From positions 1 to 53,288 of the forward strand of contig CAYYSG010000003.1 of the NCBI GenBank assembly GCA_964474375.1: 53,288 nucleotides of DNA, in the 5' to 3' direction. This DNA comes from an uncultured Candidatus Saccharibacteria bacterium (GTDB taxonomy: Bacteria > Patescibacteriota > Minisyncoccia > Phycocordibacterales > UBA9973). The notes below the pieces were generated by a model. It saw nothing but the letters and a program-made list of their open reading frames with translations, did no database searches and was not told where the DNA came from. The position numbers were made by a program, and so were the translations under genes. Below are positions 15,154 through 49,215 of the stretch, piece by piece; positions within the stretch are counted from its first letter, which is position 1, and each line of letters opens with the position of its first letter.

Positions 15154-15229
15154 CACTTTACACATAGCGATCATTCTCGCTACGCGCTGTTCTGGGCCCA
15201 CACGGGTCCAGGCGTTCAGTATAACAGAA

Positions 15230-15260
15230 GAACCCCCAGGAATACCAGTCCTGGGGGTTC
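15230..15260. terminator. Stem-loop between the convergent arms
   Basis: 12-bp perfect stem GAACCCCCAGGA/TCCTGGGGGTTC with a 7-nt loop. Confidence 0.55.
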
Positions 15261-15311
15261 CGTTCGTCCTGGGGCCGCCTGTCGCGTCCTGGGACCTGTT
15301 TTTAGTGAAGT

Positions 15312-16040
15312 TCAGTGGGGGGCGTATGTGGACATGGGGCGGAGCGTGTACACGTTGACGACCTGGACGTCATAGTCCGGGAATGCCGCCGCATGCTGAT
15401 GGGCCCAGTTCTGGGCGACCAGAGCGAAGCCGAACGTCCGGGCCTGGTCCGGGTCGTTCGTCCAGTACGTCGCCGCCCCCCATGCGTCCTTCAGGTACAT
15501 GACTTCGCCGTTGACCGTCGACCGGATGATCCAGCGCTTGTTCGCGGCCCGCAAGGCCGGGGAAACGTTCGGGACCTTCGGGGCATCCGCTTCCTTCAGG
15601 ACCTGGGGCTTCGTGTTCGGGAACAGGTCATGGGCCGCGTTCCCGGCCCGGAAGGCATCCCCGTACACGTCCCAGCGGGTCGCGTCTTCCAGGCCGGGAG
15701 CCCAGACCAGTTCCCCGTCCAGGTCGCGGACGACTAGGAACCAGTTCCCGTCGTCCCGAACGTCCAGGATGACGTACGGGCCCATGAAGCCCCCGTTCCG
15801 ATTGTACAGGGACTGGGTCGTTCCGGGAAGGAAGTAAACCGGGGGCGGTCCGTCTTCCCCCCGGACCGCCAGGACGCGGGACTGGTCCATCAGGGCCGCC
15901 AGCACGGACCAGGCCCAGATCGGGTCCTTCTGGGCGCGAAGCAGGTCGACCATGTCGGGTTCCGGCATGGTCCGGACCTGGGCGATCGCGGAAATCAGAA
16001 CGGCGGACAGGTCGATCGCGGCGGGCGTGTTGAGTGTCAT
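15312..16040 (-). CDS. Hypothetical early protein with two copies of a small W...YWT.D.D.A..F module
   Basis: Start reassigned to the ATG at 16040, preceded by the GGAAGGA-GAACCC initiation signature. Confidence 0.7.
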   Translation of the reverse strand: MTLNTPAAIDLSAVLISAIAQVRTMPEPDMVDLLRAQKDPIWAWSVLAALMDQSRVLAVRGEDGPPPVYFLPGTTQSLYNRNGGFMGPYVILDVRDDGNWFLVVRDLDGELVWAPGLEDATRWDVYGDAFRAGNAAHDLFPNTKPQVLKEADAPKVPNVSPALRAANKRWIIRSTVNGEVMYLKDAWGAATYWTNDPDQARTFGFALVAQNWAHQHAAAFPDYDVQVVNVYTLRPMSTYAPH

Positions 16041-16104: not shown

Positions 16105-16707
16105 TTACATCCAGACCATTTCCATGTTTTTGACCGTGAACCAGCGGCGGTCCAGGTCGTCCAGAGCGATCGACGCGATACCCTTGACCTTGAACCGTGT
16201 CCCGGCATCCGCTTCCGTCGTCCAGTAATCAGCCCCCCGGTTCGCTTTGTGGAAGAAGACCCGGTCGCCGTCCAGTTCGCCCTGGATGACCCAGCGGCCC
16301 AGGCCCCGCGCTTCCAGTTCGGCCTGGATGCTTCGCCGCATTGACCAGCGGACGTCCGCCGTATAGTCCGACGCTTCCAGGGTCTTCAATTCGTCGACCA
16401 GAACGTCGTCCGCCCAGGCGCGAACCTTCAGCGTGTAGCCCTGAAGCTCCGGAGCGACGGCGGTCCAGGCGATCATCCCGTATTCATAGGCCGGAAGATT
16501 GACGCGGAAGCCGTCCTGGTTCGTGTGGACCTTCGGTTCGCGGGCGGTCCAGGCGTCGACGACCCGCTGGGCGGACGCTTCGCTGAACAGGACCAGGTCT
16601 TCGTTGTTGAGGTCGTTCGTCCATGTGTCGCGGCGGGTCAGGAACTTCGGGGCCGTGCTGTTAATATGCGTCCGGGTGATCAGGAACAGGCGTTCGGGAG
16701 CGTTCAT
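16105..16707 (-). CDS. Hypothetical early protein, partly paralogous to the downstream gene
   Basis: Initiation signature present; RWVIQGELDG...YWTTEADAGTRF module. Confidence 0.75.
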   Translation of the reverse strand: MNAPERLFLITRTHINSTAPKFLTRRDTWTNDLNNEDLVLFSEASAQRVVDAWTAREPKVHTNQDGFRVNLPAYEYGMIAWTAVAPELQGYTLKVRAWADDVLVDELKTLEASDYTADVRWSMRRSIQAELEARGLGRWVIQGELDGDRVFFHKANRGADYWTTEADAGTRFKVKGIASIALDDLDRRWFTVKNMEMVWM

Positions 16708-16760
16708 GGGTTCGTGTCCTTCCGGGACTGAAGGGCCGGAACGTCCGGCCCGCTGAAGTA

Positions 16761-16789
16761 AATATACACGGATATACGGATATTGTCAA
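16761..16789 (-). promoter_or_regulatory. Sigma70-type early promoter with operator
   Basis: TTGACA-17-TATATT on the - strand; ATATACGGATAT at 16772-16783 lies in the spacer. Confidence 0.8.
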
Positions 16790-16856
16790 GGGGTGAATTC
16801 TAGGTACGCGAAGACCCCGGACCGAAGGCCGGGGTCAATGCTCCGTCAGGGGCGTT

Positions 16857-17549
16857 CTAGCGGGGCGAACGGACCGGAATACCCTGGTACGTCAACGCTT
16901 CCGCGTAATGGACGGCCCGGATGTGTGGGGACAGCGCCAGGGACGCGATCGACCGGGCGACCCGAAGAACAGCATCCATGTGTCCCGTCGTCGCCCCGAT
17001 CTGGGCCTGGATGAACCGGGCCTTCAGCTTCCGGCATGGGTCGTCCAGGTCCAGGCGGTCCGCATGGTCGATCATGTGTTCGACCCCCAGCGCAACACGG
17101 CGGAAGACGGCCTGGTCGGTCCAGTATGTTTCCGGACTGGTCCGCTTCGCTCCGTCCCCGAACGGGACTTCCAGGACCAGGTCCGCCCGCATGGCGGACA
17201 GGTATCCGTCCGAACGCGGATAGTCATGCGTAAGCTGTTCCGAACAGACGCATGGGTCGTTCGGCTTCCCGCTGTTTCCACAGAAGCAACTGAACACGGT
17301 CGCAACCGGAAGACCGTACGCCCGTCCCCAGGTCGCAAAGCGCATGGTCGTTTGCGGGTTCCCATGGGACAGAAGCGTCACACGATGGGAGCATACCAGG
17401 GCGACTTCCAGGGCCCGCTTGACGTGTTCGTGTCCCTGGATGCTTTCCAGCTTTGGGACCGAACATTTCCGGAAGACCGACATGGGGAACCAGGTCGACG
17501 CTTCGTCGACCCAGCGGGCGTCCGATGGAAGTAAGTTCAACGTCTGCAT
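16857..17549 (-). CDS. Truncated ComM/YifB (Mg-chelatase-related AAA+) homolog lacking intact Walker motifs
   Basis: SIQGHEHVKRALEVA, CFCG...PCVC, RADLVLEVP and VLRVARSIASL...HYAEALTY match successive YifB/ComM blocks. Confidence 0.75.
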   Translation of the reverse strand: MQTLNLLPSDARWVDEASTWFPMSVFRKCSVPKLESIQGHEHVKRALEVALVCSHRVTLLSHGNPQTTMRFATWGRAYGLPVATVFSCFCGNSGKPNDPCVCSEQLTHDYPRSDGYLSAMRADLVLEVPFGDGAKRTSPETYWTDQAVFRRVALGVEHMIDHADRLDLDDPCRKLKARFIQAQIGATTGHMDAVLRVARSIASLALSPHIRAVHYAEALTYQGIPVRSPR

Positions 17550-17601
17550 GGGTTCTTCCTTCCAGGATGAGCGGGCCGGAACATCCGGCCCCGTGACAGG
17601 G

Positions 17602-17630
17602 ACTATATCAGTATATCCGGATATTGTCAA
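17602..17630 (-). promoter_or_regulatory. Sigma70-type early promoter with a perfect palindromic operator
   Basis: TTGACA-17-TATAGT; ATATCCGGATAT at 17613-17624. Confidence 0.8.
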
Positions 17631-17914
17631 GGGCATGACCAGGGATACTTCCGGCATGCGTCCTTCCGGACCGCGTCTTCCTGGACGGCGGCCTGTTCCA
17701 GAAGGTCGTCGCGTCCCGCGCATGACCAGACCGTATACGACCCGACAGGAAGGGTTCCCGCGAAGACCGTCGCGGTCAGATGGAACGGGGCCGCGTATTC
17801 CGGACAGGGGGCGTCCTGGGCCGTCTGGGGCCGTTCTGGGGCCTGGGCGTTCGTCGGGGTCGACCAGACGATCCCGCCCAGGATGACCAGGACGACCAGA
17901 AGCGTTCGGTTCAT
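17627..17914 (-). CDS. Small secreted Cys-containing protein
   Basis: Signal peptide MNRTLLVVLVILGGIVWSTPTNA; four Cys residues. Confidence 0.75.
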   Translation of the reverse strand: MNRTLLVVLVILGGIVWSTPTNAQAPERPQTAQDAPCPEYAAPFHLTATVFAGTLPVGSYTVWSCAGRDDLLEQAAVQEDAVRKDACRKYPWSCP

Positions 17915-18834
17915 TGACTGACCTTCCGTTCTACGCCGTTCGTCGACCGGCGAAGGTCGACCGCGTTCTGTATCGCGTTCTCATCCGCTTCCGCCTGGGA
18001 CGTACAGGATGTCCCGACGACTTCGCCTAGCGGGATGCGGCCCGTCGCATCGTACACGATCATGCGTTTCTCATAACACTGGGCCGCGACGGCGGGCGCG
18101 GGCGCAGGCACGTACACGGGGTCCGGGGGCGGCGGAACGGCGGTCGGGCGGACGGTCATGTCGACCAGGCCCAGGGGGTCTAGTTCGAACCCAGACAGGG
18201 CCGCCCGCTGGACCCAGACCTGGGGTCCGTCCGGGGTTCCGACATGGACCAGGACCCATGCTCCGCCGTCCGCCGTTCCAGCGGGGAAGACCGCCGTCCC
18301 GTCGTCAAGCGGGGTCGCCTGGTCCGCGAAGCGATAGTCCCAGCGGGCGACCTGGGAACCGTTCAGGCGGGCCTGGGGGGACGGGGTCGGTTCCAACGTC
18401 GGGGGAACGCTGGTCGGACGTTCCTGGGCCGTTCCAGGGGCTTCCAGGCCTGTCTGGGGAACAGCGGTCGGAACGTTCTGGTCAACGTTCGCGGACCCGA
18501 AGAAGAACCGGGCTAGCCCCATCCCCATCAGGACGACCAGGACGACGGCGGCGACGTTCGCCCAGGCGTTCCGGGGACGTTCCGGGGCCGCCTGGTCCGG
18601 GTCCGCTGGAAGCAGGTCCCGGATGGACTGGGGCTCCCGATATGCGGGTTCCGCCGTTCCGGGCGTCCTGGGCCCGCCTGTCGCGGGCCGGGGGGCTTCC
18701 TGGACCGGGTCGTCCTTCGCCGGGGGGGCCGGGTCGTCGTCGACCCAGACCCGTTCGACGAACAGGCGATCGTCTTCTTCCAGGATGCGTCCGTCCGGCC
18801 CCCGGTCCGCTTCCGTAATAACCATACGCGGCAT
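17911..18834 (-). CDS. Single-pass membrane protein with Pro/Thr-rich linkers and an SH3-like extracytoplasmic domain
   Basis: TM segment VAAVVLVVLMGMGLARFFF; PTSVPPTLEPTPSP linker; GAWVLVHVG...QVWV. Start set at 18834. Confidence 0.75.
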   Translation of the reverse strand: MPRMVITEADRGPDGRILEEDDRLFVERVWVDDDPAPPAKDDPVQEAPRPATGGPRTPGTAEPAYREPQSIRDLLPADPDQAAPERPRNAWANVAAVVLVVLMGMGLARFFFGSANVDQNVPTAVPQTGLEAPGTAQERPTSVPPTLEPTPSPQARLNGSQVARWDYRFADQATPLDDGTAVFPAGTADGGAWVLVHVGTPDGPQVWVQRAALSGFELDPLGLVDMTVRPTAVPPPPDPVYVPAPAPAVAAQCYEKRMIVYDATGRIPLGEVVGTSCTSQAEADENAIQNAVDLRRSTNGVERKVSQ

Positions 18835-18848
18835 GGGTTCTGTCCTTC

Positions 18849-20012
18849 CTAGAATGTAAAGCGATAGCGGCCCCGCATGGCCCCCGGTTCGACCAGGCCC
18901 GCGTCCTTCCACATGTCAAGATAGGATCGGACCGTGCTTTCCGCTCCGTTCATCCGCTCCGCAAGGTCCCGAACGGTCCAGTCCGAACGTCCGACCAGCG
19001 CCTGGGCCTTCCGGGCGGTTACGGACGGCCCGTCGTCGTCGAATGCGTCCTGGGATCGATCCTGGGACACATCCGGAACGTTCGGAACGTTCGACGCGGG
19101 GTCCAGTTCCAGCGTTTCGCCGGTCGACGCTTCGACCAGTTCCCAGGGGTTCCGGTTCATGGCGTCCAGACCCCGTTCTAACGTTCGTGGGGTCAAGGCC
19201 ATGCCCGTGTCCCGAACGGCCTTCGCCACAACGTCCAGGCGGGCCGTCCGATAGGGGTCATTGTCCGGGATGGCGACGTCCATCTGAACCAGTTCGCCTA
19301 ACAGCTTGACGACCTTCTGGGTCCGCTGGTCATGGGCCGTATGCATGGCCCGGACGACGTCCGCGACGTAGCTCCGCTGTTCGACCGTCGCCTGGTCCAG
19401 GCCCGCCGCCATAATGGCGTACGCCCGGACGACCGCCGCTTCCGCCAGTAGCAGATCGGCCTGATGGTCCCGCCGCATCCGTTCGACTTCCTGGGACATG
19501 GTCACTTCCGCGAACCAGTGTCCCGGACTGGACGCGGACCAGACTAAGGCCGGGATGATCGCCGTAACGCTGAACGTCAGGATCGTATACATCCAGACGC
19601 GGCCCGACAGGGCGACGGACGCCTGGGCCGCATAGAACGCCCGCAGCATGTCGATTGACGTCCAGCATAGGAACCCGGTTACGCCCAGAAGCAGGACGAA
19701 GCCCAGGGTCTTCCACTGGAATTCCAGAAGGTACATGCCCGCCTTCGTCGACGGAAGGACCTGGGCGAGTAACGCCGGGACGACCAGGGACTGGGACATG
19801 GACAGTAGCAGGGTCAACATGACCAGAAGCCCCATGCGGAACATCCCGAAGGCGTTCGTCGGGAACGGACTGTCCCAGGGGATGAGCAGGGCACAATGTA
19901 CATATAACCAGAAGACCCCGGCCCCCAGGACCCCCAGGTCGGAAAGCTGGTTCTTGACCGTCCGGCCCCCGGCCCGCCTGGGGGTCGACAGAACATTCTG
20001 GAACGTGTTCAT
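18849..20012 (-). CDS. Multi-pass membrane protein with a helical linker and C-terminal winged HTH
   Basis: About four hydrophobic segments, then WTVRDLAERMNGAESTVRSYLDMWKDAGLV...GRYRF. Confidence 0.75.
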   Translation of the reverse strand: MNTFQNVLSTPRRAGGRTVKNQLSDLGVLGAGVFWLYVHCALLIPWDSPFPTNAFGMFRMGLLVMLTLLLSMSQSLVVPALLAQVLPSTKAGMYLLEFQWKTLGFVLLLGVTGFLCWTSIDMLRAFYAAQASVALSGRVWMYTILTFSVTAIIPALVWSASSPGHWFAEVTMSQEVERMRRDHQADLLLAEAAVVRAYAIMAAGLDQATVEQRSYVADVVRAMHTAHDQRTQKVVKLLGELVQMDVAIPDNDPYRTARLDVVAKAVRDTGMALTPRTLERGLDAMNRNPWELVEASTGETLELDPASNVPNVPDVSQDRSQDAFDDDGPSVTARKAQALVGRSDWTVRDLAERMNGAESTVRSYLDMWKDAGLVEPGAMRGRYRFTF

Positions 20013-20050
20013 GGGTTCTTCCTTCCTGTTCCCTTGACCGGACAGGCCGG

Positions 20051-20686
20051 TCAGGGTGTGTGTACGGTCACAGTATACGACGACGGCGGCTCGTCGTCGT
20101 CCGGACGGTCCCGGAAGTCGACGGCGAAGGCGTAACAGAATTCGACCGCGTCGATCCATTTCCGCTCGGCTCCGTGTATTCGTTGATCAAGGGGAAGGTT
20201 CCCGTCCGTAATCATATGGATGAGCCCGATCCCCATCGCTTCGACCAGGTCGTCTTCGACCTTGACCTGGACCCGGATCATGGACCGCTCCGCTTCCGAC
20301 GTAGGCTTCGGAATATTGACCAGAACTTCGTACGTCGCTTCCGCATTATGGCGCGTCATGGGGAAGTCGGGCCCCATCTTGATCAGGTTCAGACACCGGG
20401 TCGGGCGTCCAGGCCGATGGGGGACCAGCGTCCACAGAATAGCGATCGACCGTGCTAACGCCTTCGCTTTGTCGTCCGGTATCTTGTCCTGCTTCTGGAT
20501 GACCCGATCAATGTTTTCGCAGATAGCGGTGTATTCCAGTCCGACGATCGCCGCGACCGGCTGCCCGGTATGGTCCAGCGTGAACCCGCTGGCCCGCCCC
20601 TGGTCGTCCCGTTCGATAACGGTCACAAGATGGACGCGGCCCCGGATGGGCCGCTGGAACGGGTTCTGTTGTTTCCCCCACTTCAT
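20051..20686 (-). CDS. Hypothetical soluble protein in the membrane operon
   Basis: Start at 20686, 1 nt from the upstream stop, with an SD-like GGAAGGGA. Confidence 0.7.
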   Translation of the reverse strand: MKWGKQQNPFQRPIRGRVHLVTVIERDDQGRASGFTLDHTGQPVAAIVGLEYTAICENIDRVIQKQDKIPDDKAKALARSIAILWTLVPHRPGRPTRCLNLIKMGPDFPMTRHNAEATYEVLVNIPKPTSEAERSMIRVQVKVEDDLVEAMGIGLIHMITDGNLPLDQRIHGAERKWIDAVEFCYAFAVDFRDRPDDDEPPSSYTVTVHTP

Positions 20687-20687
20687 G

Positions 20688-21383
20688 TTAGTTCCCTTCC
20701 TGGTCAATCGTATCAGTGAGCGATCGGAGCGCACGGGATGCCGTGTCGACGCTGGTTCCACACGCACGGGCTAGAACGGTCGGACTATCCGTCCCCAGTT
20801 CCTTCGCACGGGCGACCAGGAAGTCCTGGGTCGTCGTCGGAAGGGCTATGATGGGGGCGTTCTGGATCGTCACGTTGACGCCGCCGTTCGTATGCTCCGT
20901 CCGATCGGGCGCGGGGCGGAGCGGAACCAGGTCCAGTCCATCGGACGACAATCGGACGGGGATGCGGGCGTTCGCCGTGAATATCAGATGGAAGACGTAC
21001 GCGATCATGGTCACGGCGGGGGCCGCCGTAAGCCATCCCCCGGTCTGTCCGTCCGCAACCTGTAAGGCCATAAGGGCCGATACCAGGCCCGCGACGATCG
21101 CCGCGACCAGGCCCGCCCCCAGGTCACGGAGCGCCCCGCCCCGCTTCCAGGTCTGGATGGCGTCGACGACGACCGATACCAGGACCAGGTCGAACGCGAC
21201 GAAGCCTAACAGGGCAAACGCAACGCGGACGATCGCCGCAACGTCCCAGACGACCCCGTCCCGAACGGGAACCGGGATGGAAGCGTTCAGCGTCCATCCC
21301 AGGGAATGGAGAAGTATCTTATACGCGGCGGCGGCCCCGACCGTGAACAGGGTCAGCTTCTGATACCAGGTCAAATTATTCAT
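20688..21383 (-). CDS. Multi-pass membrane protein with C-terminal HTH
   Basis: Four to five hydrophobic segments, then SPTVLARACGTSVDTASRAL. Confidence 0.75.
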   Translation of the reverse strand: MNNLTWYQKLTLFTVGAAAAYKILLHSLGWTLNASIPVPVRDGVVWDVAAIVRVAFALLGFVAFDLVLVSVVVDAIQTWKRGGALRDLGAGLVAAIVAGLVSALMALQVADGQTGGWLTAAPAVTMIAYVFHLIFTANARIPVRLSSDGLDLVPLRPAPDRTEHTNGGVNVTIQNAPIIALPTTTQDFLVARAKELGTDSPTVLARACGTSVDTASRALRSLTDTIDQEGN

Positions 21384-34139: not shown

Positions 34140-34199
34140 ATATACGGATATTACGGGAAGTATACACCCGTTGACAGGGAACGTCAAGCCCCGTATACT
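34140..34199. promoter_or_regulatory. Interdigitated divergent sigma70 promoters plus operator
   Basis: + strand: TTGACA(34171)-17-TATACT(34194). - strand: TTGACG(34187)-17-TATACT(34164). ATATACGGATAT at 34140-34151. Confidence 0.8.
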
Positions 34200-46854: not shown

Positions 46855-49215
46855 ATGCCTGACCAGAACGCGCCGCCCCCAGGGGCCGATCAATCCGTCA
46901 AGCCGGGGTCCGGAAGCGGACCGGGCGGCAAAATGACACCGGCTGAACGGGCCCGCCATGCGTCCCTGGTCCGCTGGAAGAAGGAACAGCCCTTCGCGGC
47001 CCGACTGGCCGCCGCCCGCGAAGCCCGGAAGGCCGCGAAGAAGGGCGGCAAGGGGAAGGGGAAGGGCGGCGGGGCGAAGGAAACGCCCGACCAGAAGAAG
47101 GCGAAGGCCCAGGCGGAAGCAGCGAAGAACCGCGCCCAGGTCATGGCCGCGTTCAGTGGCGCGTATGACACGGACATCCTGAAGAACATGGAAGCCCTGG
47201 TCCGGGGGGACGACCTACCCGAAGACGGGGCGGACGACATGATCCGGTCTGGACTGGCGGAGCGGGTCGGACCGGACGGAACCCTGGTCCCGACCCCGGC
47301 GCTTCGTCAACTCTGGAACGCGGCATCCGATGGGGACCGGGGCAAGGCGAAGGAAATCATCGCACGGGCGGAAGACAGTTACGACCAGAAGGTCCAGAAG
47401 GACCAGGCGAAGGCCGAACGCGAAGCCGGACGTACGTCCGGCAAGAACGGAACCGAAGGCCGGGGTCTGGACAAGTCCGGGAACCCAGCGGACGCGATCG
47501 GGAAGAAGGGCGAAAACGCCCCCCAGGACGCGACAGGCGGGTCCGGGACGGGCCTGAAGGACAAGCTGAAGGGAATGATGGGGGAAGCCGGTTCCGGCGC
47601 GTCTGGGGCCGCCCAGGAAAAGAAGAAGGGCGGCGGGGGCGGCGGCGGGAAGGGGAAGGACGACAAACCGACCCCGGAACAAACCGCAGCGGACACCGCA
47701 TCCCAGACGACGGGCCGGTCCGCCGTGTCCGACCAGGATGTATCCGCCCTTCGGGACCTGTCCCAGGGCCGGACGGCGAAGAACACGGACCGCCTTCGGG
47801 CCCTGGGCTATATCGAAACGGACGACGACGGGAACGACGTCGCCACATCCGAAGGACGGCGGGCGCTGTCCGCCCTGGAACGCGGGGACCTGGGAGCATA
47901 CCAGGCCGCATATGAACAGGCCCGGTCGAAGAAGCGTTCAGCGGACCGGGCCCAGGTCGACCGGAACCAGCGGGGGAACGCCCAGGCCGAACAGGACGCG
48001 GAACGGCGGAACGCGATACGGCGGGCCGTGACCCGGAACCCGATCAAAGCGCACGAAGGAACAGACATGAGCTATGCGGACATCCTGGAAGCCCTGGACC
48101 CGCTCCCGGACCAGTTAGCAGACTACGCGGACCGCCTGGTCCAGGACGGAACGAAGGCCGGGGCGCGAAACAGCGCAGCGGACCAGGCCCTGATCAATGA
48201 AATTTACAACAAAGCGGAAGACCTGCTTCTGTTAGCGGAAGAACTGGGGGCCGAACTGGGCGTCGACCTGGGGGACGAAGACCAGGAAGAACCGGACGAC
48301 GACATGGACGACGACGCCATGAAGGCGCTGTCCTATGACCAGGCGTCCGAACAGGTCCGCTCCGCCTGGTATCAGGCCATGCGGTCGAACGGCCCGCCCA
48401 TGCTGGACGACGACGGTCCGGCCCGTATCTATCCGATCGCAATCTACCCGGACGCCCTGATTATTGAACAGGGCACGAAGAAGTACAAAGTCGGGTACAC
48501 GGTCCAGAACGGCGACTATACCTTCGCGGACCGCTCCGCCTGGGTCCAGGTCGAACCGGCCTGGGTCCCGGTTCAGGCCCCGCCGTCCGGCCTGGAAGCG
48601 GTCAAGGCCCTGAACGATACCGGGAAGGTCGGGGCGTACGCCATCCTGTTCGGGAGTGAAGATACCCCGGACCTGTCCCCGTTCCAGGACTTCTTCACAA
48701 AGAAGACCGACTTCTGGCTAGGGGAATGGTCGAAGCGGCCCATGCTGTTCCATCACGCAATGGACCCGGCGACGAAGGCCGCCCCTGTTATCGGGACCTG
48801 GAATAAGGCGGTCCTGGACGACGTCGGGGTCTGGATGGAAGGTCAACTGGACATGGCGCATAAGTATGCGTCCGCCGTCCAGCAACTGGTCACAATGGGG
48901 AAGCTCCGCGTGTCCAGTGATAGCGCCCCCCACCTGGTCGTCCGCGACCAGAAGCCGAACGGGACGAACGAAATCAAGCGCTGGCCGATCATGGCCGCGT
49001 CCTTGACCCCGACCCCAGCGGAACCGCGTTTACTCCCGGTCGAAGCGCTCAAGAGTGTGTTCAGCGCGGCGGGTCTTGACTTGCCGCTGGAACTTATGCA
49101 GACCCAGGACGCCCCCCAGGCGTCGACGAAGGCGGCCCAGGCCGCGAAGGTCGACCCTGAACACGAACGTCAACGTCTGCTTCTGGAACTGGATTTAATG
49201 GAACTGGAAGGCTAA
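46855..49215 (+). CDS. Prohead protease (HK97/S78-like) with a roughly 570-aa charged N-terminal extension
   Basis: C-terminal GAYAILFG...FFTKKTDF...LFHH...GVWMEGQL...SSDSAPHLV...SLTPTPAEPR. Confidence 0.85.
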   Translation: MPDQNAPPPGADQSVKPGSGSGPGGKMTPAERARHASLVRWKKEQPFAARLAAAREARKAAKKGGKGKGKGGGAKETPDQKKAKAQAEAAKNRAQVMAAFSGAYDTDILKNMEALVRGDDLPEDGADDMIRSGLAERVGPDGTLVPTPALRQLWNAASDGDRGKAKEIIARAEDSYDQKVQKDQAKAEREAGRTSGKNGTEGRGLDKSGNPADAIGKKGENAPQDATGGSGTGLKDKLKGMMGEAGSGASGAAQEKKKGGGGGGGKGKDDKPTPEQTAADTASQTTGRSAVSDQDVSALRDLSQGRTAKNTDRLRALGYIETDDDGNDVATSEGRRALSALERGDLGAYQAAYEQARSKKRSADRAQVDRNQRGNAQAEQDAERRNAIRRAVTRNPIKAHEGTDMSYADILEALDPLPDQLADYADRLVQDGTKAGARNSAADQALINEIYNKAEDLLLLAEELGAELGVDLGDEDQEEPDDDMDDDAMKALSYDQASEQVRSAWYQAMRSNGPPMLDDDGPARIYPIAIYPDALIIEQGTKKYKVGYTVQNGDYTFADRSAWVQVEPAWVPVQAPPSGLEAVKALNDTGKVGAYAILFGSEDTPDLSPFQDFFTKKTDFWLGEWSKRPMLFHHAMDPATKAAPVIGTWNKAVLDDVGVWMEGQLDMAHKYASAVQQLVTMGKLRVSSDSAPHLVVRDQKPNGTNEIKRWPIMAASLTPTPAEPRLLPVEALKSVFSAAGLDLPLELMQTQDAPQASTKAAQAAKVDPEHERQRLLLELDLMELEG

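Follow-up and report, generated by a model that had tools for sequence, protein, structure and literature searches.

In many bacteria, ComM acts as the motor of branch migration during natural transformation, with its gene being a preferred site of insertion for mobile elements. Within the AAA+ proteins, BchD falls into the clade of ComM, and the N-terminal domain of BchD/ChlD of Mg-chelatase and clamp-loader delta-prime are both AAA+-derived shells without nucleotide chemistry that work by binding. H-NST, a truncated H-NS from genomic islands, antagonises H-NS. Insertional inactivation of comM by mobile elements has been described for Tn7-like AbaR islands and for serine-recombinase elements (PMC11014353). 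ComM itself is monomeric and forms rings only with ATP and DNA; its oligomerisation requires the Lon-like domain, and its zinc finger is unresolved in the cryo-EM map (PMC11612176). The region of residues 225-341 comprises the end of Walker A (K224/T225), the H2 insert (281-289), the Walker B glutamate (E302), sensor 3 (R316), and the PS1-beta hairpin (324-336), while R463 is the arginine finger in the naming of the same study (PMC11612176).

The locus presented here encodes a protein of 230 aa (P0001, denoted mini-ComM), which shares with ComM/YifB (TIGR00368; Legionella pneumophila ComM, 8rxd) helix alpha0, strand beta1, the sensor-1 strand, the CxCG...CxC cluster, and the R-x-D strand; its C-terminal part is a shortened, Mg_chelatase_C-like lid. 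It differs from ComM by the absence of the Lon-like N-domain, the Walker A lysine, the H2 insert, Walker B, sensor 3, the PS1-beta hairpin, and R463. Whereas BchD/ChlD and delta-prime have a full five-stranded core and act as chromosomal partners in one complex, mini-ComM is a three-stranded stub found on mobile elements. Its likeness to H-NST lies in a mobile element carrying a shortened paralogue of a host DNA-transaction protein with the effector part gone; however, H-NST keeps its oligomerisation domain and loses DNA binding, whereas mini-ComM, a putative antagonist, has lost the known oligomerisation determinants. With insertional inactivation it has in common that the same host gene stands at the centre of a conflict between mobile element and host, but insertion is a disruption at the DNA level, whereas the window studied here contains no comM flank and no integrase was found in it.

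P0001 is very probably a true ComM homologue and a member of an unrecognised mobile-element family of ComM-derived pseudo-ATPases, judging from the homology, alignment, and census data presented below. In the literature, nothing was found on truncated ComMs from mobile elements; this family, specific to mobile elements, appears to be new. It is devoid of all motor parts, its zinc finger and lid are strongly constrained, and it points to a function of those parts of ComM that are least understood. It also suggests how phages and islands might interfere with host recombination at the protein level, in a manner open to testing.

The phage genome and its probable host

The window, i.e. the whole stretch of DNA that was analysed (53,288 nt), is the entire contig C3 of a 727-kb bin. 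Because its GC content is 63.6% versus ~37% in the rest of the bin and a 55-bp direct repeat is common to both of its ends, contig C3 represents a complete circular genome of a tailed phage of ~53.2 kb, which was mis-binned in a low-GC bin. Its gene content includes a portal, a prohead protease-capsid fusion, a tape measure, an endolysin, DnaB, a DNA polymerase III beta clamp, and two DNA methyltransferases. Neither a tyrosine integrase nor a serine recombinase was found in the whole window. The phage DnaB is nearest to cellular DnaBs named Roseiflexaceae, Kouleothrix, Oscillochloris, and other Chloroflexota, and because of these relatives the host is probably a Chloroflexia-type bacterium and not the low-GC organism of the bin. 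The mini-ComM family also provides a rare handle on phage-host biology in Chloroflexota.

The bin's own ComM (contig C1, 518 aa) was considered as the host target and rejected, since the window is a mis-binned phage. Contigs C4, C9, C16, C27, and C28 of the bin are likewise high in GC and probably foreign to it. Elsewhere in the phage genome, overlapping divergent consensus promoters were observed at 34159-34199 (plus strand, TTGACA-17-TATACT, 11/12; minus strand, TTGACG-17-TATACT, 10/12), a candidate early or regulatory switch region.

The mini-ComM gene and its expression signals

The features of the locus are compiled in Table 1. The reading frame is real: its ATG start codon is preceded by GGAAGGAAG, and a homologue that is 96% identical and also 230 aa long is encoded in syntenic phage contigs from two other metagenomes. 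The gene had been described as having its own promoter, and this holds, the match to the sigma-70 consensus being one of only four of this quality (11/12) in the whole phage genome. Near-identical modules composed of promoter, GGGCCGGAyGTTCCGGCCC palindrome, and RBS occur only before the mini-ComM gene and before the next gene, and phage L002, a relative, has retained both promoter-hairpin-RBS modules. A role of the palindrome as a 5' mRNA stabiliser or as an operator for a dimeric repressor is conceivable, and the hairpin behind the mini-ComM stop codon may be a terminator or a 3' stabiliser. The gene thus appears to form an autonomous cassette, with a promoter of consensus host type and a 3' hairpin without a U-tract; early expression from the promoter at 17630 is plausible. 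A search for RNA runs covering the locus retrieved none.

Table 1. Features of the mini-ComM locus (window coordinates) and of the encoded protein
Feature	Position	Strand	Evidence and remarks
Mini-ComM CDS, 230 aa (P0001)	16857..17549	-	ORF and translation, ComM homology, AF2 model
Sigma-70-type promoter TTGACA-17-TATAGT, 11/12, TG extension	17602..17630	-	abuts the stop codon of the upstream gene; kept in phage L002
8-bp perfect palindrome/hairpin GGGCCGGAtgtTCCGGCCC	17573..17591	-	5' leader, between -10 box and RBS
RBS GGAAGGAAG	17555..17563	-	sequence
Helix alpha0, first AAA+ helix, codons 37-50, IQGHEHVKRALEVA	17400..17441	-	R45, A46, and V49 invariant in the family
Degenerate P-loop, codons 60-68, LSHGNPQTT, no GK[ST]	17346..17372	-	alignment with Chloroflexota ComM, motif census
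C4 zinc cluster, codons 88-102, CFCGNSGKPNDPCVC	17244..17288	-	four Cys and G91 invariant in 73 members
Four-helix lid (Mg_chelatase_C-like), codons 145-221	16887..17117	-	PF13335, AF2 helices; ends with invariant A-E-A-x-x-Y
Stable hairpin GACCCCGG...CCGGGGTC, 20 nt past the mini-ComM stop codon, no U-tract	16813..16836	-	
Twin promoter TTGACA-17-TATATT and same hairpin, for the next gene	16733..16789	-	next gene: 16105-16707, 200-aa ORFan
Strong intrinsic terminator, 13-bp stem and T-run	15229..15261	-	closes the leftward gene block

The neighbours of the mini-ComM gene in the window are ORFans in both Pfam and PHROGs and therefore provide no functional context for P0001. The two downstream ORFans, 15312-16040 (242 aa) and 16105-16707 (200 aa), both on the minus strand, have a module of ~40 aa in common (BLASTP E 4e-5; RW.I....G......A.YWT..D...F), which is present in more than one copy per protein; neither of them matched anything in Pfam, PHROG, or PADLOC. 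The five upstream genes (17627-21383, minus strand) are ORFans as well, one encoding 95 aa with a signal-peptide-like N-terminus and another 387 aa with a weak C-terminal HTH (Pfam HTH_23, E 1.4e-3).

Relationship of P0001 to ComM

The similarity of P0001 to ComM far exceeds the level of chance. The Pfam model Mg_chelatase matches P0001 with 23.6 bits (cut-off 20.3), and Mg_chelatase_C (PF13335) matches residues 168-221 with 23.9 bits, just below its cut-off of 26. NCBIfam TIGR00368 (YifB) is hit with an E-value of 1.7e-8 and 33.5 bits, a score that does not reach the curated whole-protein cut-off of 362.4. P0001 gave no match in PHROGs, PADLOC, or a single-sequence search of the PDB. When a profile of 73 family members was compared with the PDB, the sole match was Legionella ComM (8rxd, E 9e-28), which is covered in two pieces, profile positions 13-53 corresponding to ComM 184-224 and positions 68-206 to ComM 342-498, with ComM residues 225-341 being skipped. 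The AF2 model of P0001 (pLDDT 84, pTM 0.81) is made up of one helix and three strands together with a zinc loop and a four-helix lid; the strands that are kept, beta1, beta4, and beta5, are neighbours in the AAA+ sheet. Structurally, the model is closest to ATPase modules of MCM and ComM (query-normalised TM-score 0.50-0.56), the ComM fold ranking behind an MCM ATPase chain by E-value, yet reaching the highest TM-score.

The deletion boundaries were read from a multiple alignment of P0001 with Chloroflexota ComMs. In this alignment Walker A is replaced by SHGNPQTT, and the residues from GKT through 'LRQPLED' (~95 aa) are gone, the deletion starting at codons 60-68; P0001 furthermore lacks eight residues of the PS1-beta hairpin, and its lid is shorter by ~18 aa. 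Substitutions have affected the sensor-1 Asn as well as the 'SAR' arginine (ComM R463). Residues C88, C90, C100, and C102 represent the CxCG...CxC ligands and are predicted to form a zinc finger as in ComM. Basic residues matching ComM R366, R369, and K373 are absent from P0001, and DNA binding by that segment is therefore doubtful in P0001. Only 36 poorly structured residues precede alpha0, and no match to the Lon-like domain (PF13541) was found in P0001 at E<=1. Given the missing motor residues and pore loops, it follows from the sequence that P0001 is incapable of hydrolysing ATP, of supplying arginines in trans, and of threading DNA; it cannot be a helicase.

The first-pass annotation, made from the DNA sequence alone, had described P0001 as a miniaturised, catalytically dead ComM homologue, and this description is borne out by the Pfam, NCBIfam, and PDB-profile matches together with the alignment of the deletions. 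All four YifB/ComM blocks that it named were recovered in order, namely IQGHEHVKRALEVA (residues 37-50), CFCG...CVC (88-102), RADLVLEVP (121-129), and the C-terminal helical lid. The same applies to the replaced Walker A, the absent N-terminal domain, and the loss of about 100 aa including Walker B, which the alignment resolves into ~95 plus 8 aa. The shortening of the lid by ~18 aa had gone unremarked in that annotation.

A family of reduced ComM proteins

An exhaustive HMMER scan of 1.84 billion cluster representatives yielded 309 matches at E<=1e-3, most of them 185-260 aa in length with one continuous match over residues ~33-222, and a profile search returned thousands more, full-length ComMs included. 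A motif census covered the 241 retrieved sequences that carry both the alpha0 motif and the Cys cluster. In these, the spacing between the two motifs is sharply bimodal, being 30-45 aa in 176 proteins, referred to as minis, versus ~140 aa in 65 full-length proteins. Minis are defined by a length of ~190-260 aa, a spacing of 30-45 aa, homology over a single stretch, and the invariant R45, four Cys, G91, and AEA..Y; P0001 has a spacing of 37 aa and all of the residues that are invariant in the family. The deletion of roughly 105 aa is common to at least 176 mini cluster representatives, and P0001, which had at first been taken for a singular oddity, is one member of a large family.

Among 73 minis with a mean identity of ~29%, eleven residues are invariant (R45, A46, V49, C88, C90, G91, C100, C102, A216, E217, and Y221). 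The arginine of the R-x-D block, which had been put forward as a key feature, is not among the residues conserved across the family. The median pI of the family is 8.35. An additional N-terminal CxxC motif, absent from P0001, is present in 61 of the 176 minis. An alignment of 42 family sequences contained no conserved stretch usable for a pattern search, and 12 closer sequences were used instead.

Three metagenomic proteins of 530-550 aa (P0015, P0016, and P0017) are tandem duplications of the mini-ComM module, with an N-terminal zinc ribbon (C-x4-C-x9-C-x2-H) and a helical linker in front. One of these fusions was modelled with AF2 from only three sequences (pTM 0.70), and the model hints that the two modules pack together. 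The natural tandem fusions suggest that the mini-ComM module works as a pair, and they point, as do the extra CxxC motifs, to self-association.

Distribution and genetic contexts

Minis are encoded by the tailed phage described here (tape measure, portal, DnaB) and a related phage, by viral contigs of 18-100 kb in IMG/VR, and by islands that end in a tyrosine integrase and harbor genes for Replic_Relax, an HTH_17 excisionase, PIN, and RadC. Other surroundings comprise RadC, a DUF6094-helicase giant, orphan DNA methyltransferases, a ligase, and a terminase; RadC lies close to the mini gene in three contexts. An all-against-all BLAST comparison of 11 mini loci revealed no conserved neighbour or partner gene. 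Most of the phages and islands with minis are those of Chloroflexota; named sources of minis are Roseiflexaceae, Anaerolineae, and other Chloroflexota. ComM (~510 aa) is present in 265 of 301 Chloroflexota species genomes, and minis occur in only a few of these 301 genomes, at least in G111 and G143, where the gene neighbourhoods of the minis proved uninformative at their present annotation. Minis are absent from isolate phage collections, isolate plasmid collections, PHROGs, and PADLOC; the isolate collections gave only C-terminal halves of full-length ComM genes, e.g. that of Thermomicrobium roseum and those flanking Acinetobacter prophages. On contig C9 of G143, mini-ComM is located 19 kb from the genome's own full-length comM (47367-47894 versus 66728-67210; L121).

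These contexts bear on a reading in which mini dimers or oligomers serve the DNA transactions or the regulation of the element itself, unrelated to host ComM, for instance as a zinc-finger adaptor, a scaffold, or a transcription factor built from an exapted AAA+ shell, much as in clamp-loader delta-prime or the degenerate AAA+ domain of BchD. Minis are found among early or accessory DNA-handling genes (RadC, methyltransferases, ligase, Replic_Relax), the family has a median pI of 8.35, the tandem-fused and CxxC-extended variants point to self-association, and one old clade with long branches (see below) is spread over very different elements with no conserved neighbour. On the other hand, neither a conserved partner nor a cognate DNA site indicates a specific role, and the strongest conservation resides in motifs shared with ComM, which may be purely structural but would agree just as well with minis imitating ComM. 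That minis serve only the element itself is a possibility that we consider rather doubtful.

Origin and selection

A tree was calculated from the 205 columns common to minis and ComM, with 60 minis, the halves of the tandem proteins, and Chloroflexota ComMs. The latter form a tight clade with short branches, and 52 of the 60 minis and all tandem halves fall into a separate, long-branched group (SH-aLRT 85); variants that retain Walker A, and other unusual ones, could not be resolved at the base of the tree. P0001 and P0002 belong to the mini group, in which they lie on a very long branch; for P0001 it measures 1.52 substitutions per site, and the function of P0001 may therefore have drifted from that of the rest of the family. 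Minis are thus, as far as this tree indicates, an old and fast-evolving lineage of mobile elements and not recent captures of each host's comM.

Two observations could be taken to mean that P0001 is a functionless, decaying relic of a captured or split comM gene: its very long branch and the pairwise dN/dS of 0.51 between P0001 and its close phage homologue, a value that suggests weak constraint and is based on only 23 substitutions (9 synonymous and 14 non-synonymous). Strong evidence of purifying selection on the mini family, much stronger than this ratio, comes from the eleven residues that stay invariant at ~29% identity. Moreover, two phages have an uninterrupted reading frame and share a dedicated promoter of consensus type and an RBS, hundreds of relatives of ~30% identity display the same architecture and the same invariant residues, and AF2 predicts the fold with confidence. 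Decay is hence already largely refuted and extremely improbable. The related possibility that the gene is an integration relic, which would show as near-identity to a host comM end, was rejected: P0001 is at most ~35% identical to any ComM, belongs to a separate clade, and is not flanked by comM.

Possible modes of action

The observations as a whole are best explained by P0001 belonging to a ComM-derived pseudo-ATPase family and acting as a static binding module, an explanation that we hold tentatively and rate as somewhat short of probable. The family arose from a ComM-like AAA+ protein by loss of the Lon-like N-domain, of ~105 aa of the ATPase core, and of ~18 aa of the lid; the core is reduced to a three-stranded stub, to which the C4 zinc finger and the lid are added. 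The conserved face formed by zinc finger and lid would bind the ligand that this face binds in ComM, be it a DNA intermediate, branched or single-stranded, or a protein partner in recombination. Mini-ComM would probably work as a dimer or small oligomer, and by its binding, branch migration by host ComM would meet with competition or be re-routed while the DNA of the element is being established, without mini-ComM joining the ComM ring. Binding is favoured over a motor function because the catalytic and pore elements are all absent and the zinc ligands are invariant. That the module occupies precisely the ligand of the zinc-finger/lid face of ComM is possible, though doubtful. Less likely still, minis might be dedicated, widespread pseudo-enzymes of mobile elements that neutralise the host ComM pathway at the protein level: they would cap ComM itself or, by way of the retained zinc-finger/lid face, sequester its partner or DNA substrate. 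If true, such neutralisation would be the counterpart to insertional inactivation of comM, and no anti-recombination or anti-transformation factor would have been described for Chloroflexota elements before the minis.

A different mechanism had been proposed in the first-pass annotation, in which mini-ComM is a dominant-negative ring poison: dead on both its cis and its trans face, it would co-assemble with host ComM protomers on DNA, stall the hexamer, and thereby block branch migration. P0001 is a true ComM homologue that retains beta1/beta4/beta5 and the lid, and with every catalytic residue gone, its entry into a ring would cripple that ring. Nearly all members of the probable host phylum have ComM, the tandem fusions suggest protomer-protomer contacts, and mobile elements benefit from inactivation of comM (PMC11014353). 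However, the Lon-like domain needed for oligomerisation of ComM is lacking in the mini, and ComM stays monomeric unless ATP and DNA are bound (PMC11612176). The mini has neither the P-loop lysine nor the pore loops. Equivalents of R316 and R463, which would bridge to the ATP of a neighbouring protomer, are missing too, the R-x-D arginine varies within the family, and an old, fast-evolving clade does not resemble a set of copies tuned to each host's ComM. As all known determinants of ring assembly are absent from P0001, this mechanism is weakened; in its stated form it appears structurally disfavoured, and we regard it as quite unlikely.

The purpose that had been assigned to such poisoning, protection of the element from transformation-mediated curing, fits the phage poorly. 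With no tyrosine or serine recombinase found in the window, curing by transformation is not an obvious threat to it, and the rationale fits the integrase-linked relatives among the minis better than the integrase-less phage.

Variant forms and annotation

The GK[ST] signature is kept in 16 of the 176 minis versus 62 of the 65 full-length proteins, and some minis may therefore still bind nucleotide. Most of them cannot bind ATP, and for these the automated names 'ATP-binding protein' and 'ATPase with chaperone activity' are misnomers; this systematic mis-annotation is corrected here. An intact or nearly intact Walker A (GPPGCGKT) without Walker B was observed in mini or intermediate forms, namely L090:7980-8573, L096:7977-8771, L089, and L091 (IMG/VR) as well as in P0027 and P0030, and a viral protein (L095:7989-8531) keeps alpha0 and the lid and is devoid of the Cys cluster. 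Together, the forms that keep Walker A and the Cys-less one constitute a graded series of ComM reductions on viral contigs.
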